Positions 21,584 to 54,859 of a stretch of 54,859 bases of DNA are shown here, in pieces. Numbering within the stretch: position 1 is the first letter of the stretch; each line of letters begins with the position of its first letter. The stretch spans positions 85,374,001 through 85,428,859 of the forward strand of contig NC_135817.1 in NCBI RefSeq assembly GCF_964213995.1, read 5' to 3'. Source of the DNA: Mustelus asterias (lineage: Eukaryota). Below the pieces are notes generated by a model, which was not told the origin of the DNA, ran no database searches, and saw nothing but the letters and a program-made list of their open reading frames with translations. A program made the translations under genes and the position numbers.

Positions 21584-21850
21584 CTCCCCTGGGTTGAGTG
21601 ATGACAGGTGAGAGAGAAGGATAGGCCACAGGGCTCTGGGTAAAGCTATTCCCCAAACTCCAAACTGGTTTCAGGAACAAAACACACTTGCACAAACAAG
21701 CCGGTATCACGGAGTGCGAGCAGAACCTCGTTTTCTCTCTCTCCCTCTCACTCTCTCAGGCAAGACCTACAGCAGTGGGTGTGAGACAAACCATCCAAAC
21801 CTCTTGCTGCCGACTTCAGACCTTGTTTTAGAGGGCGTTTCCATAGCAAC
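21584..21850 (+). promoter_or_regulatory. Unit 1 conserved promoter block with RFX X-box
   Basis: CTCCCCTGGGTTGAGTGATGACAGGTG, TATTCCCC, AGGAACAAAACAC, CAAGCCGGTATCAC; GTTTCCATAGCAAC at 21837-21850. Confidence 0.65.
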
Positions 21851-21865
21851 GTAAAACGAGGAGCC

Positions 21866-22043
21866 ATGTGGCGGTGGCGGTACAGGGAAGTATTTAACAC
21901 CTACTTCGAGGTGCAGATGTGCTGTGAAATGTTCAAGGTCGCTCCCCTGATTAAACCCGTGAATCGTCCAGTGCTAAAACTGAGAGACAGGGTGGCTGGC
22001 ACGGAACCAGCAGTCAGCACTGTGCCACCGTTCGATAACACAG
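21866..22043 (+). CDS. Variable first exon, unit 1 (type A): MWRWRYREVFNTYFEVQMCC...STVPPFDNT|G
   Basis: GGAGCCATG start, 59 codons plus 1 nt, donor CAG|GTAACT; paralogous to the other units. Confidence 0.8.
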
Positions 22044-22519
22044 GTAACTCATTGTCTCGTGCTTCTGCTGCCTTCCTGTGGTGTGTCGATAATTGCTGGT
22101 CTGCCAAAATGTCCTCTAACCCTCGCTCCTGTCTGTTCAAGTTGATGGGGAAGATTGCACAGCTAGCTAGCCAAAGGACCTGTGATACCTCGCACATGTT
22201 GGTTAATTTTAGTGCGTGAGGCAAAGTATGTGTTGACAGGCTGTTTTCCCCACAGCGAGAAGCATAGCAGAACCTGAGTATATGTCTCCATCCAGCCTCC
22301 ATACATGTGCACCATCCAGTAGAGGTCACTGGATCACAATCGGAAGTGAGATATTTAGATATTTTCCTCTAACTTTGCCAGCGCAGAAAGTTCACAACCA
22401 TTTTCACACCCCAGTTATTGCCCAGTGAACCCTCGGACCGTGCATCGATTTGTAGACCTCTAACTCATGCAGTGCCTTCCTTACGTGACCTCAGGATGTC
22501 TCAATGAGTTACTCTTGAA

Positions 22520-22702
22520 TAAAAGCAAAATACTGCGGATGCTGGAATCTGAAACAAAACCAGAAAGCGCTGGAAAATCTCAGCAGGTCTGACAGCATCT
22601 GTGGAGAGAGAACAGAGCCAATGTCCATCCTGATCGAAACATTGGCTCTATTCTCTCTCCACAGATGCTGTCAGACCTGCTGAGATTTTCCAGCATTTTC
22701 TG
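22520..22702. mobile_element. Palindromic Penelope terminal-repeat fragment (second family)
   Basis: Long inverted repeat GCTGGAAAATCTCAGCAGGTCTGACAGCATCTGTGGAGAGAGA and its reverse complement. Confidence 0.7.
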
Positions 22703-22786
22703 TACGTACTCTTGAAGTGTGGTCACTGCTGTAAGATAGCAAACATGACAGCCAATTTCTGCATAGCAAGCTCCCACAAACAGCAG

Positions 22787-23180
22787 ATAAAGAACAAAGA
22801 AAATTACAGCACAGGAACAGGCCCTTTAGCCCTCCAAGCCTGCACCGACCATGCTGCCCGACTGAACTAAAACCCCCTACCCTTCTGGGGACATTATCCC
22901 TCTATTCCCGTCCTATTCATGTATTTTTCAAGATGCCCCTTAAAAGTCACTACCGTATCCACTTCCGCTACCTCCCCCGGCAATGAGTTCCAGGCACCCA
23001 CTACTCTCTATGTAAAGAACTTGCCTCATACATCTCCTTTAAACCTTGCCCCTCGCACCTTAAACCTATGTCCCTTAGTAATTGACTCTTCCACCCTGGG
23101 AAAAAGCTTCTGACTATCCACTCTGTCCATGCCCCTGATAATCTTGTAGACTTCTATCAGGTCGCCCCTCAACCTTCGTC
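22787..23180 (-). mobile_element. CR1 3' end
   Basis: AAAGAACAAAGA tail and CR1 C-terminal coding remnants on the minus strand. Confidence 0.8.
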
Positions 23181-23409
23181 AATCAAGCTATTTTCAAGCT
23201 CAAGCTCCATTAATCAAGCTATTTTCGTAACATTGGTTGTGAAATAAGAACCACCAGAAATAACTCCTTTAATAATAAAGAAGGAAGATTGGCATTCATA
23301 CAGGGCTGTTCATGACCACTGGATTTATGAAATCCTACAGTGCAGAAGGAGGCCATTCAGCCCATCGAGTCTGCATCGACCATAATCCCATCCAGGCCCT
23401 CTCCCCATA

Positions 23410-24840
23410 TTGCTGATGTGGTTCCTATTTTCAAGAAGGGGAATAGGGATAGCCCAGGAAATTACCGACTGGTGAGTCTAACCTCAGTGGTTGGTAAGCT
23501 GATGGAGAAGATCCTGAGAGACAAGATTTATGAGCATTTAGAGAGGTTTAATATGCTCAAGGATACTCAGCATGGCTTTGTCAAAGGCAGATCATGCCTT
23601 TCGAGCCTGGAGGAGTTCTTCGAAAATGTGACTAAACACATTGACGAAGGGAAGGCGGTAGATGTGGTTTATATGGATTTTAGCAAGGCGTTCGATAAGG
23701 TCCCCCATGCAAGGCTTCTCGAAAAAGTGAGAGGGCATGGGATCCAAGGGGCTGCTGCCCTGTGGATCCAGAACTGGCTTGCCCAAAGGAGGCAGAGAGT
23801 GTGTACAGATGGGTCTTTTTCTAATTGGAGGTCGGTCACCAGTGGTGTGCCCCAGGGATCTGTTCTGGGACCCTTGCTGTTTGTCATTTTCATAAATGAC
23901 CTGGATGAGGAAGTGGAGGGATGGGTTGGTAAGTTTGCTGACGACACGAAGGTTGGTGGGGTTGTGGATAGTCTGGAGGGATGTCAGAAGTTACAGAGGG
24001 ACATAGATAGTATGCAAGACTGGGCGGAGAAGTGGCAGATGGACTTCAACCCAGATAAATGCGTAGTGGTCCATTTTGGCAGGTCGAATGGGATGAAGGA
24101 GTACAATATAAAGGGAAAGACTCTTAGTACGGTAGAGGATCAGAAGGACCTTGGGGTCCGGGTCCATAGGACTCTAAAATCGGCCCCGCAGGTGGAGGAG
24201 GTGGTTAAGAAGGCATATGGTGTGCTAGCCTTTATCAATCGAAGGATTGAGTTTAGAAGTCCGGGGATAATGATGCAGCTATATAAGACCCTCGTCAGAC
24301 CCCACTTGGAGTACTGTGCTCAGTTCTGGTCACCTCATTACAGGAAGGATGTGGAAAAGATTGAAAGGGTGCAGAGGAGATTTACAAGGATGTTGCCAGG
24401 ATTGAGTGGCATGCCTTATGAGGATAGGCTGAGGGAGCTCGGTCTTTTCTCCTTGGAGAGACGTAGGACGAGAGGAGACCTAATAGAGGTATATAAGATG
24501 TTGAGAGGCATAGATCGGGTGGACTCTCAGAGGCTTTTTCCCAGTGTGGAAATGGCTGCTACGAGAGGACACAGGTTTAAGGTGCTGGGGGGTAGGTACA
24601 GGGGAAATGTTAGGGGGAAGTTTTTCACACAGAGGGTGGTGGGCGAGTGGAATCGGCTGCCGTCAGTGGTGGTGGAGGCAAACTCAATAGGGTCTTTTAA
24701 GAGACTCCTGGATGAGTACATGGGACTTAATAGGATGGAGGGTTATAGGTAGGCCTAAAAGGTAGGGATATGTTCGGTACAACTTGTGGGGCCAAAGGGC
24801 CTGTTTTGTGCTGTAGCTTTCTATGTTTCTATGTTTCTAT
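23410..24840 (+). mobile_element. 5'-truncated CR1 LINE with open RT ORF, nested inside a V-SINE
   Basis: PIFKKG..NYRLVSLTS, DFSKAFDKVPH, GVPQGSVLGP, FADD motifs; ORF to 24752; TTCTATGT tail; SINE halves on both sides. Confidence 0.95.
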
Positions 24841-24996
24841 AATCCCTTTACCTTAGCTTGTTACCCCTGACACTAAGGGGCAACTTAGCAAGGCCAATCC
24901 ATCTAACCCGCACATCTTTGGATTGTGGGAGGAAACCGGAGCACCTGGAGGAAACCCACGCAAACACAGGGAGAATGTGCAAACTCCACACAGACA

Positions 24997-25173
24997 TGAT
25001 GTGGGGATGCCAGCGTTGGACAGGGGTGGGCACAGTAAGAAGTCTCACAACATCAGGTTAAAGTCCAACAGGTTTATTTGGTAGCACGAGCTTTTGGAGC
25101 AGCGCTCTGAAAGTTCGTGCTACCAAATAAACCTGTTGGACTTTAACCTGGTGTTGTGAGACTACTTACTGTG
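24997..25173. mobile_element. Palindromic Penelope-derived element inserted in a SINE
   Basis: Inverted repeat; 12-bp TSD TCCACACAGACA (24985-24996, 25174-25185). Confidence 0.75.
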
Positions 25174-26136
25174 TCCACACAGACAGTGACCCAAGCCGGC
25201 ATTCGAACTTGCACCCCTGGCACTGTGAGGCAGCAGTGCTAACCACTGTGTCACCATGCCGCCCCAAGCACTATTTAACAGTATTGGGCGGGAATCTCTG
25301 ATCTTGTCTGTACCGGTCCCGTTGCCAGCGAGAATTTGGCGCTCACCCAAAACTCCTTTCACTGCAGCGGGACCGAAGAATCGCAGCCACAGATGAGTGC
25401 AGAGGTTCTCTGAGATTATTTCACAGCATGCGGCCGCCACTGGCGAGGGCAGCATTTATTGCCCCTTCCTAATTGCCCTTGAGAAGCTGCTGGTGAGTCA
25501 TCTTCTTGAACAGGTGTTGTCCACATGGGTGTAGGTACGCCCACAGTGCTGTTCATTCCTTAAGCAGAGTTGGACACAACTCAGGGTCTTGCTGGGCCAT
25601 TCCAGAGAGCAGTTGAGAGCCACATTGCTGTGGGCCTGGAGTCACATGCAGGCTAGATGGGGTAAGGACGGCAGACGCAGGTGAATCAGATGGGTTTGGC
25701 CAACAATAGTTTCATGGTCACCATTACTGATGATTTTCCAGATTAATGCATGGAATTTAAACTCCCATCAGTTGCCATGTTGGGATTTGAACCCAGGGCC
25801 CTGGAGTATTAGCCTGAGGCTCTGAATTACTCATGCAGTAACATTGCCACGATACCACCGCCTCCACCTAAATTGGATTCACAGCCAAGAAAGTACTTTT
25901 GTGAAGTGTAGACTATTGTAAGGTAGGAAACATGACAACCGAGTTGCACACAGCAAGATCCCATAATCAGCAATGTAATAATGGAGAGATAGCCTGTTTA
26001 TGGTAATATTGGTTGAGGGATAAATATTGGCCAGGATGCTGAGTAGAACACCCCCGCTCTTCTTTGCAATAACAGCCTTTGATCATTTACAGCCATGTCA
26101 GAGATCGGAATGGGCCTCCGTTTACTATCTCAGTTT

Positions 26137-26470
26137 AATATATCCCCAATGGTGGGGGAGTCCAGAACCAGGGGTCACAGTCTGAGGATTCAGGGTAGAC
26201 CATTTAGGACAGAGGTGAGGAGACATTTCTTCACCCAAAGAGTGGTGAGCCTGTGGAATTCATTACCACAGGAAGTAGTTGATGCCAAAACATTGAATGT
26301 ATTCAAGAGGTGGCTGGATATAGCACTTGGGGCGAATGGGATCAAGGGTTATGGGGAGAAAGCAGGATTAGGCTATTGAGTTGGACAATCAGCCATGATG
26401 GTGATGAATGGTGGAGCAGGCTCGAAGGGCCGAATGGCCTCCTCCTGCTCCTATCTTCTATTTTCTATGA
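26137..26470 (+). mobile_element. CR1 3' end
   Basis: VGESRTRGHSLRI..FRTEVRRHFFTQRVVSLWNSLP plus tail. Confidence 0.88.
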
Positions 26471-27029
26471 CTCTCCCTGTCTGGAACACAGCATCTTTGT
26501 CAGTGCAGCCCTCAGTACCTTGGTTATTGTGTCTGAACCCTGGAGTGGGACTTGACCCTTATGACTCAGGTGTGCTTCCAACTGAGCCGCAACTGACACT
26601 CAATGTTGCAACAGGTGTTTTTATACCCAGGGTAGCCAGGGTTTAACATCCCATTGTAAAAGTGGCTGATGGCTGACAGTGCAATGAGGTGTATAAAATA
26701 ATGATAGGGAAGTCTAAAAATAGGGAAGTCTCACCAAAATTAACCTTTGTTCACTGTAGCAGGATCAGAGAATCCTGCCGGCATAAATGGCCAGAAAATT
26801 CACAAGCTTTTGAAGCCAAGTTCCAATTGTTAAACTGTGATAATGGGATTCTGATCTCATTTTCACCATAGTTTAAGTCTCTTGGTTACTTGTCCATTAA
26901 CATGATACACTACTGCACTGGGATAACTTTGTTTTGATTCATTCGTGGGACATGGGCGTTCCTGGCTGGCCAGCATTTATTGCCAATGCCTAATTGTCCT
27001 TGGAGGGCAGTTGAGAGTCAACCACATTG

Positions 27030-27347
27030 TAGAATCGTAGAATCCCTGCAGTGCAGAAGGAGGCCATTCGGCCCATCGAGTCTGCACCGACAACGATCCC
27101 ACCCAGGCCCTATTCCCATAACCCCACATATTTATCCTGCGAATCCCCTGACACTAGGGTCAATTTAGCATGGCCAATCCACCTAACCCGCACATCTTTG
27201 GACTGTGGGAGGAAACCGGAGCACCCGGAGGAAACCCACGCAGACACGGGGAGAATGTGCAAACTCCACTCAGACAGTGACCCGAGGCCGGAATTGAACC
27301 TGGGTCCCTGGCGCTGTGAGGCAGCAGTGCTAACCATTGTGCCACCC
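27030..27347 (-). mobile_element. HE1-like V-SINE nested in the second SINE family
   Basis: Full head, V-domain and tail; host SINE resumes on both sides. Confidence 0.85.
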
Positions 27348-27719
27348 CTGTGGCTCTGGCACTGGAGTCACATGTAGGCTAGGCTGGGTAAGAACGGCAG
27401 ATTTCCTTCCCTAAAGGACATTGGTGAACCGGATGGGGTTTTTCCGACAATCGACAATGGTTTCATGGCCATCAGTAGATTCTTAATTCCAGTTTTCTTT
27501 ATCGAATTCAAATACCACCACCTGCTGTGGATAGGATTCGAACCCTTGTCCCCAGAACATTAGCTGAGTTTCTGGATTAATAGTTCAGCGATAATACCAC
27601 GAGTGGTATTACTGGGGTAGAATAGATATTCCTTCTTTCATATCCTTTTAAAATCACTATTTATTTATTTATTTACACTGGTATCTTTCAAATAATTACA
27701 GCCAGGATTTTCTGATCTT

Positions 27720-28160
27720 TGGTTTGATTTATTATTGTCACATGTATTAACATACAGTGAAAAGTATTGTTCCTTGCGCGCTATACAGACAAAGCATACT
27801 GTTCATAGAGAAGGAAAGGAGAGAGTCCAGTTTGTCGTGCTACAGTTATAGCTAGGATGTAGAGAAAGATCAACTTAAGTCCATTCAAAAGTCTGATGGC
27901 AGCAGGGAAGAAGCTGTTCTTGAGTCGGTTGGTACGTGACCTCAGACTTTTGTATCTTTTTCCTGATGGAAGAAGGTGGAAGAAAGAATGTCCTTTAGGG
28001 AAGGAAATCTGCCGTTCTTACCCAGTCTAGCCTACATATGACTCCAGTGGGTGCGTGGAGTCCTTAATTATGCTGGCTGCTTTGCCGGGACAGCGGGAAG
28101 TTTAGACAGTCAATGGATGGGAGGCTGGTTTGCGTGATGGATTGGGCTACATTCACGATC
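27720..28160 (-). mobile_element. Rex/Babar-type LINE 3' fragment
   Basis: Near-identical to 33385-33985 and 39810-40245; TTTGA/ATTT tail. Confidence 0.75.
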
Positions 28161-28479
28161 TTGTTCTCCCAGACTCCGCTGCCAGCGAGAATGGAGAATT
28201 TGGCGCTCAGCCAAAACTCCCTTCACTGCAGCGGGACTGGAGAATCCCAGCCGCAGGCGAGGTCAAAGAATTCCAGCCTACATCATTCAGTTGGCGAATC
28301 TCCTCCTTTGGAGACATGCCCAAGTAGGCCATACCAGAGCCTGCCTGAGTTTAATTCATGTAGTTGAAACCAGATCTTGTTCCCGTTGCTTCTCTCCATA
28401 TTCCTCCCTGTTTTCAACCTTCATAGGTTCAAAGGTTCACAACTTCGTTGTGCAGGGAGACCTGGCCTCTGAGATGGAG

Positions 28480-28612
28480 CTCCCCTGAGTCAGTGACAGC
28501 AGGTGTTGGAATGATGGTGGAGGGTTCTGGGTACAGATATTCCCCAGTCAGCCCTGCTTTCGGTAAATAGGAACAAACCTTCTCACACACACATCAGCCA
28601 GTGTCACAGAGC
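28480..28612 (+). promoter_or_regulatory. Unit 2 conserved promoter block
   Basis: CTCCCCTGAGTCAGTGACAGCAGGTG; GATATTCCCCAGTCAG; GTAAATAGGAACAAAC; CAGCCAGTGTCACAGAG. Confidence 0.7.
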
Positions 28613-28736
28613 GAGGCAGGAACTCTCACTGAGAGAGGCAGTCAGGGTTTGCGTCAAATTGTTTGTCTGTAAATGTGAGCCAGACCCTTGTCTTGCGCTG
28701 TTGTTTGGATTCGGAGCAGGGCAAATGAGAGCAGCC

Positions 28737-28905
28737 ATGTTTATGTACACGAGTGTGTTTCGAACGATGTGGCATGTGCACCTCTGCTGTAAAGAATTCA
28801 ACGCCATTCCGATGGTTCCCAACAATCAACTTGTGGTGAAGCGTAGGGGGAAAGTGTCTAATTCTGCACCTACAGTCAGCACCGTACCTCCCTTTGACCG
28901 TGAAG
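28737..28905 (+). CDS. Variable first exon, unit 2 (type A): MFMYTSVFRTMWHVHLCC...STVPPFDRE|G
   Basis: GCAGCCATG start (in-frame upstream ATG at 28725), 56 codons plus 1 nt, donor AAG|GTAACT. Confidence 0.8.
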
Positions 28906-29126: not shown

Positions 29127-29190
29127 GTGGAGAGGTAGGTCCACAAACACGGCATATGTAGACACCGACACAATTGCAAGACCTCTCCAC

Positions 29191-30236: not shown

Positions 30237-31293
30237 GTGACTATAATGTTGAATGGTTCAGCTGTTCTGTGTTTGACTATGTGAGTCTGGCAACTGATCT
30301 ATGCTTATAGCGCTTGATTGGCGAAGCCTGGGTGTTGACTCAGAGCAAAAGTAATCAGCCAACACAGAAGCTACTGGAAGCTGAGCTGTAGACATGACTG
30401 TAAATATTTATGATTGTAGAGATGTTTTAAAAGTCTTGTAAGTAAACCTGCTGCAAATGTAGAAAGGAGTGTCATCTTTACATTGGTCTGAGGAAAATCA
30501 AATATATTAAAAGTACAACAGCGATAGCCTTGTTGAATGGCTGGGTATCAGATGATGTCCACATTCAATCTTAGAAGAGTAATCTTAAAAGGAAACACCT
30601 TGATGGGATTTCATCCCACAACCATCCCAGCTTAGATTGGGGTTGCCAACTCTCCAGGATTGCCCTGGAGTCTAAAGAACAGCTTCTTCCCTGCTGCCAT
30701 CAGATTTTGAATGGACCTACCTCAAATTAAGTTGATCTTTCTCTGCACCCCAGCTATGACTGTAGCACTACATTCTGAACCCTCTTTTTTCCCTCTCCCC
30801 TATGCACTCTATGAACAGTATGCTTTGTCTGTATAGTGCGCAAGAAATAATACTTTTCACTGCATCCCAATACATGTGACAAGAATAAATCAAATCAAAG
30901 TTTTCTGCAGAGCATGGAAGCGAGTAAAGCCGAGAGGAGGATTAATTTGGGACTTTAAGTCTGTGCTTTAAAAGAGCATTTATTTTGAGCATTTTTGTTT
31001 ATGAGTTATAGAAATTTTGGGGATGGGCAGAAAAGTTGTTTGAAGTGAAAGTGTGGTTCGCTGAAATAGTTCCAGCCAGAGCCAGCATTCACGTAGCGAG
31101 CCATTGTGTTTGTATCTGAACCTTTGCTTTTAGTGGAAGGAATTAGTGACTCCAATGATGTGAATGAATTATTTTTAAGAATAGAATATGGGAATTCTGC
31201 CTATTAAATAGTTACAAGGTGAATGAAACTTCAACATGATAAATAGCATTAGGGGGTCTTGTGAATGAAGTGTTGTAAATACTCTACTCAAAT

Positions 31294-32090
31294 ACACCCA
31301 GACTCCAACACCCCCAGACTCCAACATACCCCCAGACTCCAACACACCCCCAGACGCCAACACCCCCAGACTCCAACACACCCCCAGACGCCAACACCCC
31401 CAGACTCCAACACACCCCCAGACGCCAACACCCCCAGACTCCAACACACCCCCAGACGCCAACACCCCCAGACTCCAACACCCCCAGACTCCAACACCCC
31501 CAGACTCCAACACACCCCCAGACGCCAACACACCCAGACTCCAACACACCCAGACTCCAACACCCCCAGACTCCAACACCCCCAGACTCCAACACACCCC
31601 CAGACGCCAACACACCCAGACTCCAACACACCCAGACTCCAACACCCCCAGACTCCAACACCCCCAGACTCCAACACCCCCAGACTCCAACACACCCCCA
31701 GACTCCAACACCCCCAGACTCCAACACACCCCCAGACGCCAACACCCCCAGACTCCAACACCCCCAGACTCCAACACCCCCAGACTCCAACACACCCCCA
31801 GACTCCAACACCCCCAGACTCCAACACACCCCCAGACTCCAACACCCCCAGACTCCAACACACCCCCAGACTCCAACACCCCCAGACTCCAACACCCCCA
31901 GACTCCAACACACCCCCAGACTCCAACACACCCAGACTCCAACACCCCCAGACTCCAACACACCCCCAGACTCCAACACCCCCAGACTCCAACACACCCC
32001 CAGACTCCAACACCCCCAGACTCCAACACCCCCAGACTCCAACGCACCCAGACTCCAACACCCCCAGACTCCAACACACCCCCAGACTCT
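31294..32090. repeat. 16/18-bp C-rich minisatellite (CCCCCAGACTCCAACA[CA])n
   Basis: Direct tandem periodicity over about 800 bp. Confidence 0.97.
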
Positions 32091-32550
32091 CGTGCACACA
32101 CACGCACATCCAGACTCTCGTGCACACTCTCAAACACACATACACACACATACAGACTCAAACACACACTCAATCACAAGCACACTCAAATATACACTTA
32201 AAATCCCAAACAAAAAACATCGGGCAGAATTTTCCCGTCCCGTCCTCTATGGGAATCGTAGCGGACGGGACCATATAAAGGTCCATTGACCTTTCCGGTC
32301 CTGGGGCGAGCATGGCCAGAAAACCCCGCCCATACACTCAATTACACAGACACAAACACGCAGAAACATATCTGGAAGGCAAATGCATACAGAATGAAGT
32401 GTGTATACCACAGTGAAGTGCTGCTTGAGATTCTTGATAGCTTCTTTACCAAATCTTCCCACCTTTACCCAACTCTGGACCAGTGTCCCCCTCCTGCCAG
32501 GTACAGGTATTATTCATCCAGGTATTATAAAGGGACAGCTGCTGTGGTTG

Positions 32551-32672
32551 CTCCCCTGGGTCAGTGATGATAGGTTGCAGAAGGTTGTGGGTAATGATAT
32601 TCCCTCGTCAGTCTTGGTAAATAGGAACAAACACTCGCACACGCACACACACACAAGCCAGTGTCACAGAGC
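32551..32672 (+). promoter_or_regulatory. Unit 3 conserved promoter block
   Basis: CTCCCCTGGGTCAGTGATGATAGGT; GATATTCCCTCGTCAG; GTAAATAGGAACAAACAC; CAAGCCAGTGTCACAGAG. Confidence 0.7.
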
Positions 32673-32760: not shown

Positions 32761-32941
32761 ATGGCGGGCTGGATGATAGGACCCCTGGTTTACGAGGAAT
32801 TATTAAAAGTCATTTGGCAGGTTAATTTCTGCTGCAAAGCATTTGATGCCTCGCCACTGAATCCCAAGGGGAGGATTGCGCTAAAGCTCAGAGCGACAGC
32901 ATCTAACACTGGACCCACTGTGCCTCCCTTTGACAATGAAG
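32761..32941 (+). CDS. Variable first exon, unit 3 (type A): MAGWMIGPLVYEELLKVIWQVNFCC...PTVPPFDNE|G
   Basis: CCATGG start, 60 codons plus 1 nt, donor AAG|GTAACT. Confidence 0.8.
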
Positions 32942-34413: not shown

Positions 34414-34560
34414 CTCCCCTGGGTCAGTGACAACAGGTAAAATAAAGTAACAACTGGACTTGGTGTGGACCTATTATTTCCCAGTCTATCATCTCAGTCC
34501 TGTATTGAGCAAATAGGAGCAAACACTCTCACACTGACACCCAGGTAGTTCAGCCAGCGT
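34414..34560 (+). promoter_or_regulatory. Unit 4 conserved promoter block
   Basis: CTCCCCTGGGTCAGTGACAACAGGT; GCAAATAGGAGCAAACAC. Confidence 0.65.
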
Positions 34561-34673
34561 GAGAGAGAGGCAACAGGCCTGTCTGTCTGTGAGATGGAAA
34601 CCTCCAGGAGCAGCCCACTGTTGGCTGAAGGACTATTTGGAAAGATCCCCCTGCACTGTGGAAAAGGGGAGCC

Positions 34674-35190
34674 ATGTCTATGTACGGGGCCTTTATGGAG
34701 ATCTACTGGCAGATGCAGGTGTGCTGTGACCTGTTCAGTGATAGTCCCGTTGACTCCAAGGTGGGTCCCACACCGAGACTGAGAGACTAAAGGTCTGCTT
34801 CTGAAACTGCAGTTACCAAGGTGCCTTCCGCCTTGGGGGGGTACGGTGGCACAGTGGTTAGCATTACTGCCTAACAGCGCCAGGGACCCGGGTTCAATTC
34901 CCGGCTTGGGGGTGACTGTCTGTGTGGAGTTTGCACTTTCTCCCCGTGTCTGTGTGGGTTTCCTCCGGGTGCTCCGGTTTCACACAGTCCAAAGATGTGC
35001 GGGTTAGGTGCATTGGCCATGCTAAATTGCACCTTCGTGTCCCAGGATGCGTAGGTTAGCAGGATTAGCGGGGTAAATATGTGCGGTTAAGGGGATAGGG
35101 CCTGGATGGGATTGTGGTCGGTGCAGACTTGATGGGCCAAATGGCCTCCTTCTGCACTGTAGGGATTCTATGATTCTTTTGATCAAGCAG
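34674..35190 (+). pseudogene. Unit 4 pseudo-exon: MSMYGAFMEIYWQMQVCC...LRD*...TKVPS[SINE]FDQA|G
   Basis: In-frame TAA at 34788-34790; V-SINE (about 34835-35176) inserted inside the PPFD motif; donor CAG|GTAATG retained at 35190. Confidence 0.82.
34835..35176 (+). mobile_element. HE1-like V-SINE inserted in the unit 4 exon
   Basis: Full-length head, V-domain and GATTCTATGATTCT tail. Confidence 0.9.
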
Positions 35191-36547: not shown

Positions 36548-36708
36548 CTCCCCTGGATCAGTGTTGGCAGGTGAGGGAAGGTTAGTGAGTGGCAGGAGGG
36601 CTCTGAGTACATATTCCCCAGCCAGTTCCAGCCTCAGTAAATAGGAACAAACTCTCTCTCTCTCAGACACACATGCACACAAACGCGCACCAGCCAGCAT
36701 CACAGACA
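36548..36708 (+). promoter_or_regulatory. Unit 5 conserved promoter block
   Basis: CTCCCCTGGATCAGTGTTGGCAGGTG; ATATTCCCCAGCCAG; GTAAATAGGAACAAAC; CAGCCAGCATCACAGA. Confidence 0.7.
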
Positions 36709-36845: not shown

Positions 36846-37017
36846 ATGATGTTCATGTTCAGAGATGTATTTATTGCACTTTACGAGGTGCACCAGTGTT
36901 GTCAGCTCTTTAATGCCGTGCCCATCATTCCGGATAAACAGCTTGTGGTGAAACTCAAAGACAGAGTGTCTAATTCCGTGCCCACAGCCAGCACCGTGCC
37001 TCCCTTTGATGTGTCAG
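36846..37017 (+). CDS. Variable first exon, unit 5 (type A): MMFMFRDVFIALYEVHQCC...STVPPFDVS|G
   Basis: CAGCCATG start (in-frame upstream ATG at 36825), 57 codons plus 1 nt, donor CAG|GTAACT. Confidence 0.8.
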
Positions 37018-41703: not shown

Positions 41704-41764
41704 AACACAGCAATTAGCAATTAAAGATTTACTATGCAAAGGCACCTGGTCTCTGAGCTGAATA

Positions 41765-41920
41765 TCCCCTGGGTCAGTGACGAGAGGTGGCATCGGGGTA
41801 GGGAGCACTGGGAGGAATCTGCTTGATGCTATTCCTGATCCGACTTGGAGGCAGATGCAGTAAACAGGAACAAATTCACTCTCTCTCACACACAAGCGAG
41901 CACCACGAGAATTAGCCAGG
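41765..41920 (+). promoter_or_regulatory. Unit 6 conserved promoter block (type B)
   Basis: TCCCCTGGGTCAGTGACGAGAGGTG; GTAAACAGGAACAAA; CAAGCGAGCACCACGAGAATTAGC. Confidence 0.7.
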
Positions 41921-42043: not shown

Positions 42044-42203
42044 ATGAGGCTTCTGGACCTGAAGCTGCTTTACATGTTCCCTCAACTACAGTTCTGCTGT
42101 CACCTTTTTAACTCTGGTCCGATCGTTTCCAAAGACCAACTTTACCAAATTATCAGAAGTGTGGTGCCTAAAACAACAGTCGAGCCTCCTTACGACCAGA
42201 CAG
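42044..42203 (+). CDS. Variable first exon, unit 6 (type B): MRLLDLKLLYMFPQLQFCC...VEPPYDQT|G
   Basis: GGAGCGATG start, 53 codons plus 1 nt, donor CAG|GTAACT. Confidence 0.8.
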
Positions 42204-44013: not shown

Positions 44014-44471
44014 AAATGTTATAGAAAGGAGTCAAAGGGTTAATGGTCAGCATGTAGATTTACCCTTTAGCTTCCTCATTGAACAGGCAGCTGAGGCGGG
44101 ATCAGGATATTGAATTTGATGATCGGCCGTGATCAAAATGAATGGCGGAGCAGGCTCGAAAGGCCTAATGGCCTACTCCTGCTTCTAGTTTCTATGTTTC
44201 TACGAGTTTAATGATGGAAATCTTACTCCCTTCCCCATTTTCCAACACAGACCAGGCAGCAAACCTCTGTCTTGCTGCCTTGGTGCAGTGTCACAGGGAG
44301 CAGGGCACCCACACACTGGGGGGAACCCCAGTTGATGAGGTTGGTGAAGTTTATAATGAAGTATTTGGGTGTTTGTTTCAGGTTGGTAATCAATCCCCAG
44401 CAAAATGCTGGTGGTGTCAACCTGATAGTGAAAGATTTACCGAACGGGGTCACCTGGTCTGTGAGCATGGA

Positions 44472-44565
44472 CTCCCCTGGGTCAGTGTCGACAGGTGAGA
44501 GAAGGGTGGGGAGTGTCGAGGGACTCTGGGCCAAGATGGTCCCCAGTCAGTCCTGGTCCCAGTGA
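44472..44565 (+). promoter_or_regulatory. Unit 7 conserved promoter block (runs into an N gap)
   Basis: CTCCCCTGGGTCAGTGTCGACAGGTG; TCCCCAGTCAG. Confidence 0.65.
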
Positions 44566-45379
44566 NNNNNNNNNNNNNNNNNNNNNNNNNNNNNNNNNNN
44601 NNNNNNNNNNNNNNNNNNNNNNNNNNNNNNNNNNNNNNNNNNNNNNNNNNNNNNNNNNNNNNNNNNNNNNNNNNNNNNNNNNNNNNNNNNNNNNNNNNNN
44701 NNNNNNNNNNNNNNNNNNNNNNNNNNNNNNNNNNNNNNNNNNNNNNNNNNNNNNNNNNTCTGAAAGTCCCTCTGAGGGAGATGGGCAGTGTTCGATTCCC
44801 TGTGTCTGTGACAGAAACTACAGAAACCGCTCACTGCTGTTTTTTTTTCATTCATTCATGGGACATGGGCATCGCTGGCTGGCCAGCATTTGTTCAGTAA
44901 GAGTTTTAACAACACCAGGTTAAAGTCCAACAAGTTTATTTGGTAGCAAATGCCATTAGCTTTCGAAGCAGTGCATACCCCAGTTTACCCCAGTCCAACG
45001 CCGGCATCTCCACATCAGCATTTGTTGCCCATCCTTCATTGTCCTTGGAGGGCAGTTGAGAGTCAACCACATTGCTGTGGCTCTGGAGTCACGTGTAGAC
45101 CAGACCAGGTAAGGATGGTAGATTTCCTTCCCTAAAGGACATTAGTGAACCAGATGGGTTTTCCAACAATCAACAATGGTTTCATGGTCATCAGTAGATT
45201 CTTAATTCCAGATATTTTTTATTGAATTCAAATTCCACCAGCTGCCATGGTGGGATTTGAACCAGGGTCCCCAGAACATCAGCTGAGTTTCTGGATTAAA
45301 GTCTAGCATAATATCACGAGGCCATGGCCTCCTTGAAGTAGATTTGGGAGAGTTTCTATCACTGGGTGAATCATGAACC

Positions 45380-45560
45380 ATGTTTTTGTTTGAAGCAATG
45401 ATTCACACTTTGCATGAAGTGCGTATGTGTTCAATGTCTCATCTTTGTTTTCCTATGACCATCTTGTGGTGAGGGGCAATGAGAGGGAGACAGAGAGACA
45501 GAAAGAGTGAGTCTGATATCAGACCCACATGTAGCATCCTGCCGTCCTTTAACCCAACAG
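45380..45560 (+). pseudogene. Unit 7 pseudo-exon (type A): MFLFEAMIHTLHEVRMC / FNVSSLFSYDHLVVR / SDIRPTCSILPSFNPT|G
   Basis: Homology across frameshifts; deletion at the CC motif; TGA at 45470 in the ATG frame; donor CAG|GTAACT retained; SINE between promoter and exon. Confidence 0.72.
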
Positions 45561-47695: not shown

Positions 47696-47993
47696 CAAGC
47701 TCTTACAAAGAGCAGTGTGGGAAATAAGCAGATAGTCTTCATTGGGGCTATTACATGTAGGATAAGTATTTGCTCAGTCAGAAAGAGAAGTCTCTTCTTT
47801 GGATTTTTGCCTTGGGAGTTTTCACATCTTTCTCAGAGGGCAGACAGGCCTGCGGTTTAGCGTCACATCTGAACGAGCCCACATCCACGCACATGGGAGA
47901 CCCTGACTCGAGCTGTAACTCTGTGGCTGGCCGACATGTTGAATGTAGCAGGCAATGTTTATTCTACAGAGGCAGCTGCTGTGAGAGGTGAAC

Positions 47994-48150
47994 CTCCCCC
48001 GGGTCGGTGACGACAGGTGTGAGAAAGGACAGGTAGGAGGGATCTGGGAGCTGCAGCTCCCTGATCGACAGACTCTGAGGTGGTTGCAGGAAAGAGGAAC
48101 AAGCTCACCCTTTCTCTCAGACAAGTGAGTGTCACAGGAATTAGCTGATA
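47994..48150 (+). promoter_or_regulatory. Unit 8 conserved promoter block (type B)
   Basis: CTCCCCCGGGTCGGTGACGACAGGTG; AGGAACAAG; CAAGTGAGTGTCACAGGAATTAGC. Confidence 0.7.
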
Positions 48151-48273: not shown

Positions 48274-48448
48274 ATGATGATGCTTCTATACCTTGAGCTG
48301 AACCACTTGTTTGTCGAGCTGCAGATGTGCTGCCAGATGTTTGGTTCCTATCCGCTCCTTTCCAATGACCAACTTAGGGACAGTATCAGAAGCACTGTGC
48401 CTAAACCAGGTACCAAGCTCGCTGCAGAGCCTCCTTACGACCATAAAG
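48274..48448 (+). CDS. Variable first exon, unit 8 (type B): MMMLLYLELNHLFVELQMCC...AAEPPYDHK|G
   Basis: 58 codons plus 1 nt, donor AAG|GTAACT. Confidence 0.8.
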
Positions 48449-49010
48449 GTAACTGCTGTATCCTCTTGTGCTCACTGTAATGTCGGGTTCAATCCCCGCC
48501 CCCTGTCCTGTCTTCCTGTTGAAGCCACTGACTGACCGGAGAGGGTTCCACAGGTGCAAGCAACCCTCTGTGATTCGCAACCCCAGTTTCCATTTGTGCG
48601 CTTGGATTGTTCGCCAGCTCTGCGACTGCAGGAAGCATCGTAGCTGAGCAGAATGCTGTCTTTGTCCAATGTCTCTCACTCTCTGGCAGTGGTTAAAGGG
48701 TTAATGTTCAGGTGCCAGCAGGAAGCAGAGGGAAGTTTTCAGTGGCTGGGCCAATGGGGAATCTGGTTAGCGATGGCGACCCCAGCTCCCTTCTCCCCTC
48801 ATCAGCACTGACAAGGGAGCAAATCTGTCTTGCTTGTGTTGTACAGATGAGTGTCACAGGGAGCAGGGCACACTGGGGAAATAAAGGTTGGTGACATTGA
48901 AGATTGAACGAATTGTGTGTTTGGTTCAGCTCTGAAATCTGGTCCTTTCAAATGCCAGTGATATGAATGGAATAGTGAAAGGTTTAATATACAGGGCCTA
49001 TGAAGTGAAT

Positions 49011-49245
49011 CTCCCCTGGGTGAGTGTTGCCAGATTGAGAAGCAGGAGTCAGGAGAGATTGTGAGCAAAGATATTCCCTAGCCAGTCCTGGTTTTAAGTA
49101 AATAGGAACAAACTCTCTCACAGACGCACAACGCCAGTGTCACAGAGAGTGGCAGAAACTCTCACTGGGAGAGAGAGAGAGAGTGTCAGTAACAGGCAGT
49201 GTGCTGCTGCCTGTGCAGAGAGAGACTGTCTCAATCTGCACCACA
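49011..49245 (+). promoter_or_regulatory. Unit 9 orphan promoter block (type A); no exon found downstream
   Basis: CTCCCCTGGGTGAGTG; GATATTCCCTAGCCAG; GTAAATAGGAACAAAC; GCCAGTGTCACAGAG; followed directly by SINE and Penelope fragments. Confidence 0.65.
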
Positions 49246-49502
49246 AGGGCTGGCACAATGGTTAGCACTACTGCCTCTCAGCACCAGAGACCCTGGTTCG
49301 ATTCTGGTCTGTGTGGAGTTTGCACATTCTCCCCATGTCTGAATGGGTTTTCTCTCCGGGTGTTCTGGTTTCCTCCCGTTTCGAGTCCAGATGACCCTCT
49401 GTCAAAGCTTTGACAAAGGATCATCTGGACTCGAAGCATCAGCTCTTTTCTCTCCTTACAGATGCTGCCAGACCTGTTGAGATTTTCCAGCATTTTCTCT
49501 CT

Positions 49503-49533
<31 letters not shown>

Positions 49534-49688
49534 CCTTCCTATTTTTCACTCTTTAAGATGTTATGTAAAATCTGACTGAGGTCTTTGGCTGCCTGTCCAC
49601 ATTTCTGGGTCTCAGGTGTTAGTTTGATTCAGTCTCCTGTGAAGCACCCTGGGAGGGTGTTTGGCTCTGACAAAGGTGCTATATAAAT

Positions 49689-50006
49689 GCAGCACAGTGG
49701 CACAGTGGCCAACACTGCTGCCTCAGCGCCAGGGTTCAATTCCCGGCTTGGGTCACTGTCTGTGTGGAGTCTGCACGTTCTCCCCATGTCTGCGTGGGTT
49801 CCCTCCGGGTGCTCCGGTTTCCTCCCACAGTCTGAAAGATGTGCAGGTTAGGTAGTTTGGCCATGTTAAATTGCCCCTTTGTGTCAGGGGGATTAGCAGG
49901 GTAAATACGTGGGGTTATGGGGATAGGGTCTGGGGGGGGGATTATTGTCGGTGCAGACTTAACGGGCTGAATGGCCTCCTTCTGCACTGTAGGATTCTCT
50001 GATTCT
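49689..50006 (+). mobile_element. HE1-like V-SINE
   Basis: Head, V-domain, tail. Confidence 0.85.
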
Positions 50007-50597
50007 GTAATGCAACTTATTGTTGCTGCTGCTGAGTTTATTACAAATCCACACACTGTGCCCCAAGCTAAGAGCTGGGTGGGTGGGTGGGGAATGGGGG
50101 GTGGGGGGAGGGGGGTGCGGAGGGTGGAGGAGGGGAGGAGGAAGGTGGGGGGAGGAGGGTGGGGAGGGTTGGGGGGGCGGTGACAGGCCACACAGGAGCC
50201 ATGACTCTGGCCCTCTCTGCCTGTGTGCCAGCTGTGTGGCTTTGTGGGTAGTGCTCTGGGTACTTGTGTCGGCAAGTTGAGGGTTCAAGTCCCACCCACG
50301 TTTCCAGTGAATCGAAAATACTGAGGCTGACGCTCGCAGCAAAATCGCTTTCCATTGGTGGCGAAGCACTTTGGAACATCCTGAGGTCGGGGAGTTGGGT
50401 TGTAAATAGAAGCGGGTTCATCCTGAATGGTGGTGAATCGGCGAGTGAGCCGGAGGGAGCCCCAGTGAGGGGCCGCACCAGCTGCTTTGTCGAACACGAC
50501 GCTCATTTAAACCCCTGGCAGTTATCTTTAATCAAGCCCAGTATCTGGTAATTAAGAGTTTACTGTCTGCAGCCACCTGGTGTGCCGCAGACTCCCC

Positions 50598-50725
50598 TCT
50601 CCCGGGACAGTGGGCACAGGTGAGAGAAGGTTAGGTCGAGCCAGGAGAGTTTGTGGGAAAACAGTTCCCAGCCCCGTGCGCCCGCTTTCTGTAAACACGC
50701 TGATTGGCAGCACAAAGCGAGAATC
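50598..50725 (+). promoter_or_regulatory. Unit 10 divergent promoter block
   Basis: CTCCCGGGACAGTGGGCACAGGTGAGAGAAGG; GTAAACAC; CTGATTGG (reverse CCAAT); CAAAGCGAGAATC. Confidence 0.55.
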
Positions 50726-50867
50726 GCAGGCGGCGGCAGGAACCCTCGCTGAGGCAGCAAGGCTGCTGCCTTGCAAAGGTGGCAGTCAATTCACAAAGAA
50801 TGCCAGTGTTGTTCCTGAGCGCTTCTGGGGATAGTCCTAAAAGACGGTGCGGCCTCTGGGAGCAACA

Positions 50868-51033
50868 ATGATGTACATGCAGCTTATTGAAATATTTATG
50901 GAGGTGCAGATGTGCTGTGTGCTTTTCAACAGCTTCCCACTCCTTTCTGACAAGCAACTGGTGCAGAGGCTGCGAGAGAAAGCAGCTATTGCTAAAACAC
51001 GTTTCAGCTCTGAGACCCGTTACGATGATACAG
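50868..51033 (+). CDS. Variable first exon, unit 10 (type B-like): MMYMQLIEIFMEVQMCC...SETRYDDT|G
   Basis: 55 codons plus 1 nt, donor CAG|GTAACT. Confidence 0.8.
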
Positions 51034-51355
51034 GTAACTATTGTGTCCTCGTGCGCTCTAGCTCATCAGTTCTTCTGCTGAAGGACGGTGACTGATGGGG
51101 ACAACTTCCATAGATACCAGCTCTCCCTCTGTCTCTCCCTCTCCACAAGCTCCACAGTGAACTGGCTATTGAACCAAGGTAAGCAGCACAGCTGAGCTTG
51201 ACGCTGTCTCTGTCCAAACTCTTGCACTTTCCAACAGGTATTGAATAATTAATTATCAGGAGCCAGAGCGATAGAAGCTTTTAAAAATGTTTTTGTGTTT
51301 GTGGAGAACTGATTTTAGTGGCGGCAATTCTGCTTCCCCTCTCATGTGGAGTGAC

Positions 51356-51391
51356 TCACCTGATGAAGGGGCAGCGCTCCGAAAGCCCGTG
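51356..51391 (+). ncRNA. Minimal hammerhead motif in a Penelope fragment; cleavage-site U mutated
   Basis: CAC-CTGATGA-A-GGGGC-AGC-GCTCC-GAAA-GC-CC-GTG. Confidence 0.6.
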
Positions 51392-51675
51392 CTACCAAAT
51401 AAACCTGTTGGACTTTAACCTGATGGTGTGAGACTACTTACTGTCCTCTCTCATCAGCAGAGGTCAGGAAACAAGCCTCAGTCTTGCTGGCATTATACAA
51501 TTGAGTTTCACAGGGGCGCAGAGCATCTGCACAATGGGAGAGTCTGCGTTGGTGAAATTTAGAATTTAATTAGTTGGATGTTAGTTTCAGGTCTGTTTTT
51601 CCATCAAATGCCAGTGGTATGAATTGAATAATTAAAGGTTTACTGTGTGGGGGATGCGTAGTCTGCACGCTGAAA

Positions 51676-51800
51676 CTCCCCAGGATCAGTATTGACAGAT
51701 TGACAGGAGAGCTTCTGAACAAAGATATTAATTCCCCAGTCAGCCCCCGGTTCAGTAAATGGAAACAAACCCACTCACACACAAGCCGGTATGACAGAAA
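51676..51800 (+). promoter_or_regulatory. Unit 11 conserved promoter block (type A)
   Basis: CTCCCCAGGATCAGT; ATTCCCCAGTCAG; GTAAATGGAAACAAAC; CAAGCCGGTATGACAG. Confidence 0.65.
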
Positions 51801-51949
51801 GTAGTAGAAACTCTCACTTAGGGAGGCAGGCAGTGTCAGCAATGGGCAGCGTGCTGCCGTCTGTGTGACAGACAGACAGTGGAAATCTCCCGCTGTTGTA
51901 TGGAAGGATGTTTGGGAGGATTTCCACCGCTGGATGAATGAGTTGAACC

Positions 51950-52449
51950 TTGCTTCTGTTTGAAGCGGTGATCCACACATTGTATGAAGCGCATGTTTAC
52001 TTTATTGGTGTCACAAGTAGGCTCACATTAACACTGCAATGAAGTTACTGTGAAAATCTCCTTGTCGCCACACTCTGTTCCTGTTCCATCTCTGTTGCTC
52101 CCAACGCCTGTTCGGGTACACTGAGGAAGAATTTAGCATGGCCAATGCATCTAACCTGCACGTTTTTCGGACTGTGGGAGGAAACTGGAGCACCCGGAAG
52201 AAACCTACGCAGACACGGGGAGAAAGTGCAAACTCCACACAGACAGTGACGCAAGCCAAGAATCAAACCTGGGTCTCTGGCACTGTGAGGCAGCAGTGCT
52301 AACCACTGTGCCATCGTGCTGCCCCATCTGTGTTGTAAACTGTAAACTGTGCCTTCATCGATTCCTGATGCCCAACTCGTGTTGAACCAATGAAAGAGAG
52401 TCTGATTCTGCACCTGCCATTAGCATTGTGTCACCCTTTAAACCAATAG
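51950..52449 (+). pseudogene. Unit 11 pseudo-exon: (L)LLFEAVIHTLYEAH[SINE]LCCKL*TVPSSIPDAQLVLNQ*KRV/SDSAPAISIVSPFK
   Basis: Start mutated (AACCTTG versus AACCATG in unit 7), SINE insertion about 51995-52324, two stops, frameshift, donor lost. Confidence 0.75.
51995..52324 (-). mobile_element. V-SINE (alternative tail) inserted in the unit 11 exon
   Basis: Full head, V-domain and tail on the minus strand. Confidence 0.87.
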
Positions 52450-53758
52450 AATTGTGCTTTGCTCTTGTGTTGCTCTATTGTAGCTGAGACTGTGTGGGTG
52501 ATTCCATGTCCCTCAGAATCTCTTGCCTTTGTGACTGAAGCCATTGCCCATAACCTCCTCTAGCCTCATAACTCTCCCAAATCCTGGTAATGCCTCCACT
52601 CCAGCCTCGTTTGCAATATTGCTCCAGAATTGGGCTCAGTTGCCTGGGCCCTAAGCGCCGAACCCCTTCCCTAAAACTCTCCGCCACTCTCTCTTTCTTG
52701 CCTCCTTTAAGATGCCCCTTCAAATGATCTTGTGTTTTTGCCACCTCTCCTCCTATCTCCTGGGTTCGTGTCACATTTTGTTTGCTGACCTCTCCCTGTG
52801 AAGTGCTTTATGGCAGTAAAGTACATCAAAGGCGCCATTTGAATTAAGTTGTTGTTGCTGCTGAATGTAGTTGAATTCATAGACTAAGTTTGTATGGCAC
52901 TATCTGGGGTTATGGGGGATGGGTGGGATTGTTGTCAGTACAGGCTTGATGGGCCGAATGGCCTCTTTCTGCACTGTAGGGATTCCATTCTATCTGCACC
53001 AGTGGCATTTATTTGAACAGAAAAGATCCTGGAAGTGTGAAAAAATACTGGCGCAATTAGTGATGGAAGCAGTGGCAACATATCGGAAGATGTTAGAGAG
53101 GAGTGTAATGTGAAGGAAAGGGGAATATCGGGATTAGGGATCAGGGTGGGAATGTGGGATAAGGAAAACTGCTGCTGTGGAGGGTAAACACCAACAGGGA
53201 CTGGTTGGGCCAAATGGCCTTCTTCAGTGTTATAAATTCTGTGTGATTCTTCCAGTGGGAAACTTGTGTTTGTGAGTTTTACCCTTTGTTTGCAATGAGC
53301 AAAAACATTTGTGCGATTTACAACAGGAAAATTCATTCATTAAACAAGTCAGAGAAATAAACTGAATTTGCCTAGCGCCAGTCACAACCTCAGGACAGCC
53401 CAAAGCCAATCAAATGCATTTGAAGTTTGGATACTGTTGGAATGTAGGAAGATGTGGCACCCAATGTGAACACAATAAGGTCCCACACACAGATAATCGG
53501 TTTCAGTGAGGGATAGACATTGAACAGAACATGCGGCAACCTCTCGAACCCTTCAATGCTGGCTACCTGGAGGACTGAAGGAGCTTCAGTTTAACCGCTC
53601 GTCAGAACTCACCCACTGTTTTGCATGGGATCGGGAGTGTTGCAGGTGGGTTGGGGGTCTTTCTAGATCAGTAACTAATTCCTAAAGAATGCCAGCATAT
53701 TTATTCCAGCAATTAAATGTTTGCTGCAAAAAAGGCACCTGATCTCTGCGCTCCATTT

Positions 53759-53905
53759 CTCCTGGGTCGGTGACGACAGGTGTGAGAAGGAGAGGCAACC
53801 GTCGAAGGGATCGAGCTGATGCTGTTCACTGATCTACAGACCCAGTAAACAGGGACAAACTGGCTCTCTCTCACACACAAGCGAGCATCACCAGGATTAG
53901 CTGAG
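53759..53905 (+). promoter_or_regulatory. Unit 12 conserved promoter block (type B)
   Basis: CTCCTGGGTCGGTGACGACAGGTG; GTAAACAGGGACAAAC; CAAGCGAGCATCACCAGGATTAGC. Confidence 0.7.
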
Positions 53906-54036
53906 ACCTCCGGGCAGGTTCCTGCGTCAAGAAACTCGCTACTCGCCCCTGTTTTTGAAACATTTCAGAGAAGTTGTGCCATTAATCGGGAAGGTATTGT
54001 CAGAAGGTTTCCACATTAGTGTGAAGGAGAGGAGCG

Positions 54037-54202
54037 ATGAGGCTTCTGGATATGATACTTGGTTCCTTGTTCTCCAAGCTGCAGATGTGCTGTTATTTAT
54101 TCAACTCGTGGCCGATCCTTTCAAATGATCAGCTTAGACAAATTATCAAAAGCACCGTCCGTAAAACGACGACCGGTACAGAGCCTCCCTACGACAAGAC
54201 AG
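54037..54202 (+). CDS. Variable first exon, unit 12 (type B): MRLLDMILGSLFSKLQMCC...TEPPYDKT|G
   Basis: GGAGCGATG start, 55 codons plus 1 nt, donor CAG|GTAACT; closest to unit 6. Confidence 0.8.
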
Positions 54203-54770
54203 GTAACTGCGGTATTCCTGTGTGCTCATTGTAATGTTGAGATTCTGTTCCGCACATGCCTTGTCCTGCTGTTGAAGGCAGTGAGTGATGGACACAGTGT
54301 TCCACAGATTCTCACTGCATTATGTTAACCTCAAAACAAATTCCCATCTCTTCATAGCTTTAACAGTTAACTGGCTATTGAACCAAGGAGTGCATCGTAA
54401 CTAAGCTCAATACTGTCTTCACCCGATGTCCAAGCTTTTGCACTTTCTAGCAGGTACCGAAGGGTTAAGGATCAGGAGAAAGAACCAGAGATTTTCTTAC
54501 CCCTTTCAGTTGTTGGGGAAACTGAGGCTAATGAGAGAGACACTGCCCTCTTCCTCCTGTCATCAACACAGATCATAGAACAAACCTCAGTCTTGCTTGT
54601 ATTGTGCAGTTGAGTGGCAAGGAGCAACGTGTCCACACACTGGGCACGACTTGTGTTAGTGAAGTTTAGGGTTAAATTCCTGACGCATTTGTTGCAACTA
54701 GTTTCCATCAAATGCTAGTGGTCTTAACATAAGAGTTGAAGATTTAAATGGGCTGGTCTCTGAGGAGAAG

Positions 54771-54859
54771 CTCCCCTGGGTCAATGCCAGCAAAGTGAAA
54801 GAACCTCAGCGAGTATCAGGATATTCTCCAGTCAGTCTCAGATACAGTGAATCGGGACA
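54771..54859 (+). promoter_or_regulatory. Unit 13 promoter block (type A), truncated by the window edge
   Basis: CTCCCCTGGGTCAATG; GATATTCTCCAGTCAG; upstream spacer homologous to those before units 7, 9 and 11. Confidence 0.6.

Follow-up and report, generated by a model that had tools for sequence, protein, structure and literature searches.

A conserved promoter-like block ahead of tandem candidate first exons upstream of ROBO2 in the shark Mustelus asterias

Arthropod Dscam1 carries arrays of mutually exclusive exons, and chelicerate sDscam carries promoter-bearing 5' cassettes. In the clustered protocadherins, tandem variable first exons, each with a conserved element, precede shared downstream exons, and this conserved sequence element (CSE) is described as a CpG-containing CTCF site with a CGCT box (PMC7811963). 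The human ROBO2a leader exons, more than 1 Mb upstream, are reported to splice onto the same exon as ROBO2b while skipping the ROBO2b first exon (PMC7010700), and human ROBO3A, which is reported to begin with a 53-residue first exon driven by a separate promoter, is described there as incapable of Slit binding (PMC5028924). Here we analysed a stretch of 54,859 nucleotides (nt) from Mustelus asterias (NC_135817.1, positions 85,374,001 to 85,428,859, forward strand; hereafter, the window) and its continuation towards ROBO2. Like vertebrate ROBO2 a/b and ROBO3A/B, the locus would join a distant upstream promoter and leader exon to the first immunoglobulin-like domain (Ig1), and a proximal b-type leader is present. 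Unlike vertebrate ROBO2, which has one alternative leader, it has about 40 putative promoter units and 22 cassette exons, and its predicted front ends are 46-64 residues long (more with a cassette), as compared with 36 given for human ROBO2a. We consider it likely that the conserved, locus-specific block found ahead of the units is a proximal promoter that starts each unit as an alternative ROBO2 first exon.

The block consists, in order, of M1, M2, M3 and M4; an extra E-box upstream of M1 is called M0. Positions past 54,859 are counted on from window position 1 (C17:85,374,001) along contig C17 of this 3.7-Gb, shark-like genome. The array comprised 40 tabulated blocks over ~125 kb, from 11.9 kb to 136 kb, all on one strand. 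These were 25 units with an intact exon, 19 proximal (subfamilies A-C) and 6 divergent, and 15 units that were broken or lacked an exon; one more unit (near 62,680), decayed and with its M0-M1 spacer lost, was included in the alignment and left out of the table. The 13 in-window units reported by the initial annotation were all present, and two others had been missed (11,880, intact, and 15,734, decayed).

The motifs occurred where they had been reported, on the + strand only and in constant order ahead of ATG exons. Among the 13 units listed initially, M1a was found with 0-4 mismatches in 12 (the minimum in random windows was 6; M1a of unit 21584 carries a 1-nt insertion), M2 with at most 2 mismatches in 7, and M3 with at most 3 in 9, two units being cut by a run of N or by the window end. 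M4 was found with at most 3 mismatches in 7 of 12 scorable units. The near-constant spacing also held: M1 lay 257-300 nt before the ATG in 19 of 20 measured units, and 210 nt before it in unit 32551. Both a block and the M1 pattern, when searched genome-wide, matched only inside the array (6/6 each; these counts are lower bounds). A transposon origin of the block was considered and is not supported, all genome-wide matches falling in the array.

Scoring motifs in the units from which they had been read would be circular, so we measured conservation in ten aligned intact proximal units outside the window, using only the 31 cross-subfamily pairs. Mean identity was 0.74 for M1, 0.68 for M2, 0.81 for M3 and 0.70 for M0, as compared with 0.47 (maximum 0.59-0.66) for background non-motif, non-coding windows, and none of 360-384 background windows reached M0, M1, M2 or M3. 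The margin over spacer was smaller for M2 than for M1 and M3. M4 reached 0.54, a value attained by 80 of 370 background windows. The proposed four-part block is thus narrowed: M1, M2 and M3 are more conserved than all of the duplicated spacer compared with them, and no such constraint was detected for M4. These values bear on the least probable account that we weighed, in which the motifs have no function and are left over from tandem duplication or gene conversion. The units are all paralogues, some of them very recent copies, and many broken units retain M1 and M3, as remnants would. Against this, motif columns in the held-out pairs exceeded spacers, intron and third codon positions (0.44; second positions, 0.60), and M0 tracks intact exons and survives where exons barely align.

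M0, overlooked in the initial annotation, is CACCTG or CAGCTG and starts ~22 nt before the M1 decamer. It was detected in 19 of 25 intact units and in 4 of 15 broken or exon-less ones (Fisher p = 0.003, an optimistic value as the units are related to each other). Seven of nine divergent units have it as well, against a per-window chance of 0.0085, including units whose exons barely align. A second E-box at +19 was present in 16/25 intact and 5/15 broken or exon-less units (p = 0.10), and in unit 125,210 it is reversed at the same offset. The E-box consensus is CANNTG and the forkhead consensus is RYAAAYA. That E-boxes had been recognised in the block proved well founded, as CA and TG are kept while the centre or orientation varies; the CACCTG/CAGCTG alternation of M0 and the reversed site of unit 125,210 are how a factor site would behave. 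The forkhead-like site was likewise borne out, RYAAAYA occurring in M3 of 18/19 proximal intact units (background 4.7%) and in 1/6 divergent intact units; this core may instead have a TATA-like role. A TAAT/ATTA core at -75 to -30, also overlooked, was present in 17/25 intact and 7/15 broken units, with a background of 24%. Because M0 occurs in divergent units while the M3 core is found in only one of six divergent intact units, the sequences indicate that M0 and the M1 decamer are the oldest part of the putative switch, and that the second E-box, M2 and M3 are features of the younger A-C units.

The 25 intact units each place the block before an ATG exon of 46-64 codons with a phase-1 donor (25/25). 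All of these exons end in xxA G|GTA although the last residue varies, and for the 24 exons listed the read-through tail runs for 2 to 73 codons; the constant end and variable tail are therefore the signature of a phase-1 donor. The ratio of non-synonymous to synonymous divergence (dN/dS) was 0.25 in subfamily A (6 exons), 0.42 in B (8) and 0.41 in C (5), and some units are very recent copies in the tree. A Pfam search with the exon proteins gave no credible family, an Atlas search gave no usable match, and no homologue was found among longer proteins. Of three matches in a search of representative proteins, two were repetitive proteins and were rejected as homologues; the sole real homologue was GCC34960.1 from Chiloscyllium punctatum. 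The last 29 residues of that gene model resemble the translation of the stretch just upstream of M0 in several units. The annotation of GCC34960.1 likely splices into the upstream sequence of the next unit, which hints that this upstream stretch is conserved in C. punctatum.

A second array at 140,306-256,591 contains 22 intact exons and one broken exon; the intact ones have a conserved, homologous phase-1 acceptor and a phase-1 donor, a symmetry that is partly built in, as the acceptor was sought in frame (one automatic call chose an upstream AG). The cassettes encode a pair of invariant cysteines that enclose a variable segment, followed by a Thr/Ser-rich end. dN/dS was 0.52 over 16 of the 22 and below 1 in every group tested, and the inter-cysteine segment is the most variable in amino acids (non-synonymous differences per site, pN, 0.38; dN/dS 0.57). 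Acceptor scores, from crude matrices as are all splice-site scores here, were 0.9-4.7 for 21 of 22 cassettes versus 11.2 for Ig1, and such uniformly low scores fit regulated inclusion. The predicted model of a cassette exon has three helices (mean predicted local distance difference test score, pLDDT, 65), and Foldseek returned no match for it at E 0.001. Homology between first exons and cassettes was weak (probability 35%, over the C-terminal 26 columns). Four promoter-bearing ATG exons (118,326-133,345) are homologous to cassettes and retain traces of a cassette acceptor region, and they are possible intermediates between a first exon and an internal exon. In a docking-site search limited to 1 of the 22 cassettes, no 14-nt complement (1 mismatch) to its acceptor region was found within 11-484 kb. 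Nearly all exons of both arrays have donors that lack G at +5 (mostly GTAAC; e.g., 22,044-22,050), a class of consistently weak sites with a possible bearing on exon choice.

Beyond the cassettes we found a 19-codon, signal-peptide-like leader exon of ROBO2b type with a split codon at 422.2 kb (phase-1 donor) and a ROBO Ig1 exon at 483.3 kb (phase-1 acceptor), the latter ~461 kb beyond the first unit of the initial annotation. Two later + strand exons score best on ROBO2 (151 vs 124 bits for one, 134 vs 114 for the other) and match it better than ROBO1. A single exon of the opposite strand gave a tie, and the Ig1 exon, common to both C17 genes, is uninformative on this point. The block was detected before none of the 22 cassettes and not before the ROBO2b-type leader. 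Given this order, with block-bearing ATG exons, then block-less cassettes, then a leader and ROBO Ig1, we regard the block as most likely the promoter of ROBO2 variable first exons. Two features of protocadherin- and UGT1-type clusters are present, namely tandem paralogous ATG exons with their own elements and phase-1 donors that match the phase-1 Ig1 acceptor. Alternatively, each unit could be a small gene in its own right, or the units could be first exons of some unrecognised gene located between this array and ROBO2; the more than 340 kb from the last block to Ig1 and the weak signal-peptide character of the exons favour this. We judge it improbable, as the read-through tail length is not conserved while every final codon has A as its last letter, followed by G|GTA as at a donor, and as a same-phase cassette array fills 140-257 kb with no other gene recognised. 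None of the 148 top candidate exons of a 554-kb span, obtained with a crude caller and with 153 further candidates left out, had a credible Pfam match. For a single-copy candidate constant exon at 140,685 the searches gave no homologue, and it was dropped once ROBO2 was found.

If the block is a promoter, each copy would act as a proximal promoter and a cell would fire one or a few of these near-equivalent promoters. The first exon would then be spliced onto Ig1, directly or via one cassette, with the remaining first exons and the b leader left out. The receptor would thereby gain a variable front end next to Ig1; with either no cassette or a single one included, its forms could number up to 25 x 23 = 575. 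This front end would tune Slit binding or receptor self-recognition, the function we prefer because human ROBO3A, with its 53-residue first exon, has been described as incapable of Slit binding. The CAGGTG that closes M1 has a second possible reading, as the splice donor of a short non-coding leader exon with the transcription start further upstream. AG|GT occurs at +20/+21 in 19/19 intact proximal units, as compared with the full E-box in 15/19, several units read CAG|GTGAG, and human ROBO2a has a non-coding first exon. We nevertheless think a donor unlikely, considering that donor scores range from -4.7 to 8.1, that the best acceptor before the ATG is mostly low-scoring and at no common position (60-219 nt away), and that the site is missing from 9/9 divergent units, with one unit having it reversed. 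Were it a donor, the role of one motif would change and the ROBO2 link would be unaffected.

The shared block is thus constrained and sits at a fixed distance ahead of variable first exons, in keeping with the initial proposal of a promoter, a function that is predicted from sequence. Comparison of unit 28480 with organism B points the same way over M2-M4, none of the 40 listed differences (42 in all) falling within 28,521-28,642 (P = 0.005 for such a gap). Several observations weigh against a promoter of ROBO2 first exons. Two of those 42 differences are unlisted and could fall within this gap, M1 differs at 2 of its 26 nt, at least as often as its flanks, and the exon of this unit has 14 differences in 169 nt, 10 of them non-synonymous by hand count. 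M0 is absent from its canonical place in 6 of 25 intact units, including 21584, 28480 and 36548 in the window. As signal peptides, the first exons are less convincing than the ROBO2b-type leader, with a best 9-residue hydropathy of 0.58-2.06 vs 2.28. The presumed link between the units and ROBO2 is drawn from their strand and phase and from there being no other recognisable gene between them. For the factors, the E-box, forkhead and CTCF names come from simple consensus motifs, and the full EBF consensus is rare, as follows.

The site initially read as EBF/Olf-1 follows the first nine positions of YCCCNNGGGR, the EBF (O/E) consensus (PMC8213819), in 19 of 40 blocks, anchors having been picked by likeness to that consensus; the full consensus is met in only 2/40, as position 10 is T in 33/40. 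The EBF assignment is thus imperfect. The conserved T at the last position also yields a GGGTCA hexamer in 15/40, which we take to be a nuclear-receptor-like half site. The same co-occurrence of EBF-like, E-box and forkhead-like motifs had suggested the promoter of a diversified immune gene read by EBF1, E2A and FOXO1 in B lymphocytes, and the inter-cysteine segment of the cassettes, being their most variable part, would suit such a gene. This idea has lost most of its basis, since the downstream gene is ROBO2 and the same factor families act in neurons, as reported for EBF (PMC12995632; PMC8213819). The homeodomain-like core before 17/25 intact blocks and a dN/dS below 1 in every group tested also argue against it, and we regard a B-cell gene as very improbable and a B-cell role of the block as unlikely. 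The neuronal or olfactory alternative, which the initial annotation had also raised, fits better: with ROBO2 as the gene and a homeodomain-like core upstream, next to an O/E-like site, a neuronal role is likely. A homeodomain core with an O/E site has been described as the grammar of odorant-receptor promoters (PMC8213819). Judging from its motifs, the block is probably read by neuronal basic helix-loop-helix, EBF-type and forkhead factors. No RNA run was listed among the sequencing runs. Runs X3 and X4, both small, cover unit 28480 as short low-depth contigs and are uninformative on expression or open chromatin; their adapter ends are presumably transposase-type.

Like odorant-receptor promoters or enhancers, the units have a homeodomain-like core with an O/E-like site (PMC8213819); unlike them, their site departs from YCCCNNGGGR at the last position and is flanked by E-boxes, and the units share one gene body. 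The proposed analogy to the protocadherin CSE holds for the near-constant distance ahead of each variable ATG and does not extend to kinship, because no CTCF-like core (consensus with up to 1 mismatch, both strands, -60 to +140) was found in any of the 40 units and CpG is not enriched (observed/expected 0.39 vs 0.36). The array resembles the clustered protocadherins in having a tandem row of variable first exons that bear their own conserved elements and precede common downstream exons, and differs in that the variable exons encode ~57 residues and not a whole ectodomain. The locus is like Dscam1 and sDscam in placing same-phase tandem internal exons and promoter-bearing 5' cassettes on the front end of a neuronal receptor of the Ig superfamily. 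Its exons differ in that they encode no Ig domain; their product is a small segment in which two cysteines are invariant and which has a Thr/Ser-rich stalk. As predicted here, the locus is a variable-first-exon cluster combined with a Dscam-like cassette array.

A further-reaching possibility, which we put forward tentatively and hold to be rather doubtful, is that ROBO2 of cartilaginous fishes forms a second neuronal identity code beside the protocadherins. Its 25 interchangeable, promoter-bearing first exons and 22 cassettes would be chosen cell by cell as the near-identical promoters compete for E-box, EBF-type and forkhead factors, not CTCF looping, and would supply hundreds of front ends for axon sorting or self-recognition. 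Known ROBO2 has two leaders; here its promoter and first exon would be multiplied ~40-fold, with 22 cassettes added. If the arrays serve ROBO2, the row of first exons and the cassettes would give one receptor hundreds of front ends, and diversification of protocadherin and Dscam type would have arisen again on a guidance receptor in a vertebrate lineage. The ~40 natural variants of one putative promoter, intact and dead side by side, offer a handle on CTCF-free tandem promoter choice. We found no description of the array in the literature on ROBO isoforms and shark variable exons that was searched (paper listings, mostly outside subscription journals).

The genome has four ROBO Ig1 exons in two tail-to-tail pairs. 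No array or block was found on the coding strand within 195 kb upstream of the other C17 ROBO gene or within ~200 kb upstream of the + strand ROBO gene on contig C68, and the 299 kb scanned upstream contained no recognisable leader of human ROBO2a type. Other loci dominated the I-set family search, and a GBE1 synteny search found nothing. NRIP1 lies 1.15 Mb upstream; we take it to be a ROBO2-side marker and found no paper for that use. The Ig1 exons of the C17 pair (L053:9300-9670; C17:86,719,866-86,720,189) are 99.7% identical in DNA, the identity being confined to a 372-nt tract at 98.9% while the other exons of the pair differ, a pattern suggestive of ROBO1-ROBO2 gene conversion in the part that encodes the Slit-binding domain.

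Table 1 Blocks and exons of the in-window units, in window coordinates.
Feature	Position	Strand
Putative promoter core (M0 E-box and M1 decamer) of a divergent unit overlooked by the initial annotation	11858..11889	+
ATG exon of divergent unit 11,880, intact, phase-1 donor	12118..12283	+
Decayed unit 15,734: M0 and M1-like core, exon with stops	15709..16130	+
Block of unit 21584: M1, partial M2-M4, without M0	21584..21712	+
Candidate variable first exon of unit 21584, subfamily A, intact, phase-1 donor	21866..22043	+
Block of unit 28480: M1-M4; no listed organism B difference over 28,521-28,642	28480..28609	+
Candidate variable first exon of unit 28480, subfamily A, intact	28737..28905	+
Block of unit 32551: E-box at -16, M1-M4	32536..32669	+
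Candidate variable first exon of unit 32551, subfamily A, intact	32761..32941	+
Broken unit: block without M0; exon with stop, runs into repeat	34414..34830	+
Block of unit 36548: M1-M4, without M0	36548..36705	+
Candidate variable first exon of unit 36548, subfamily A, intact	36846..37017	+
Block of unit 41764: M0, M1, M3	41743..41875	+
Candidate variable first exon of unit 41764, subfamily B, intact	42044..42203	+
Block of unit 44472: M0, M1, M2; remainder unreadable in this copy	44451..44550	+
Broken exon downstream of the block of unit 44472	near 45,377-45,557	+
Block of unit 47994: M0, M1, weak M3, M4	47973..48137	+
Candidate variable first exon of unit 47994, subfamily B, intact	48274..48448	+
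Block lacking both M0 and the second E-box, with no exon detected after it	49011..49145	+
Block core of unit 50597: M0, M1	50574..50622	+
Candidate variable first exon of unit 50597, subfamily C, intact; 59% identity to GCC34960.1 residues 1-58	50868..51033	+
Block of broken unit, without M0 and without second E-box	51676..51797	+
Block of unit 53757: M0, M1, M3	53736..53860	+
Candidate variable first exon of unit 53757, subfamily B, intact	54037..54202	+
Last in-window block, without M0; then a long CA-rich repeat outside the window, no exon found	54771..54859	+

A repeat element at 127,052-127,290 splits M1 in a unit that is intact in other respects, and letters of M1 are duplicated on its two sides. 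A 1349-codon Gypsy-like reading frame (66,652-70,698) has the block at 66,182 on one side and what is left of a subfamily-B exon (~71,010) on the other. Minisatellites were detected at 8,425-9,670, 12,946-13,628 and 31,286-32,089, with periods of 20, 69 and 16-50, respectively. On the opposite strand, a frame with a frameshift at 17,028-17,405 (-) is probably a processed pseudogene, presumably of ribosomal protein L39, which it resembles.

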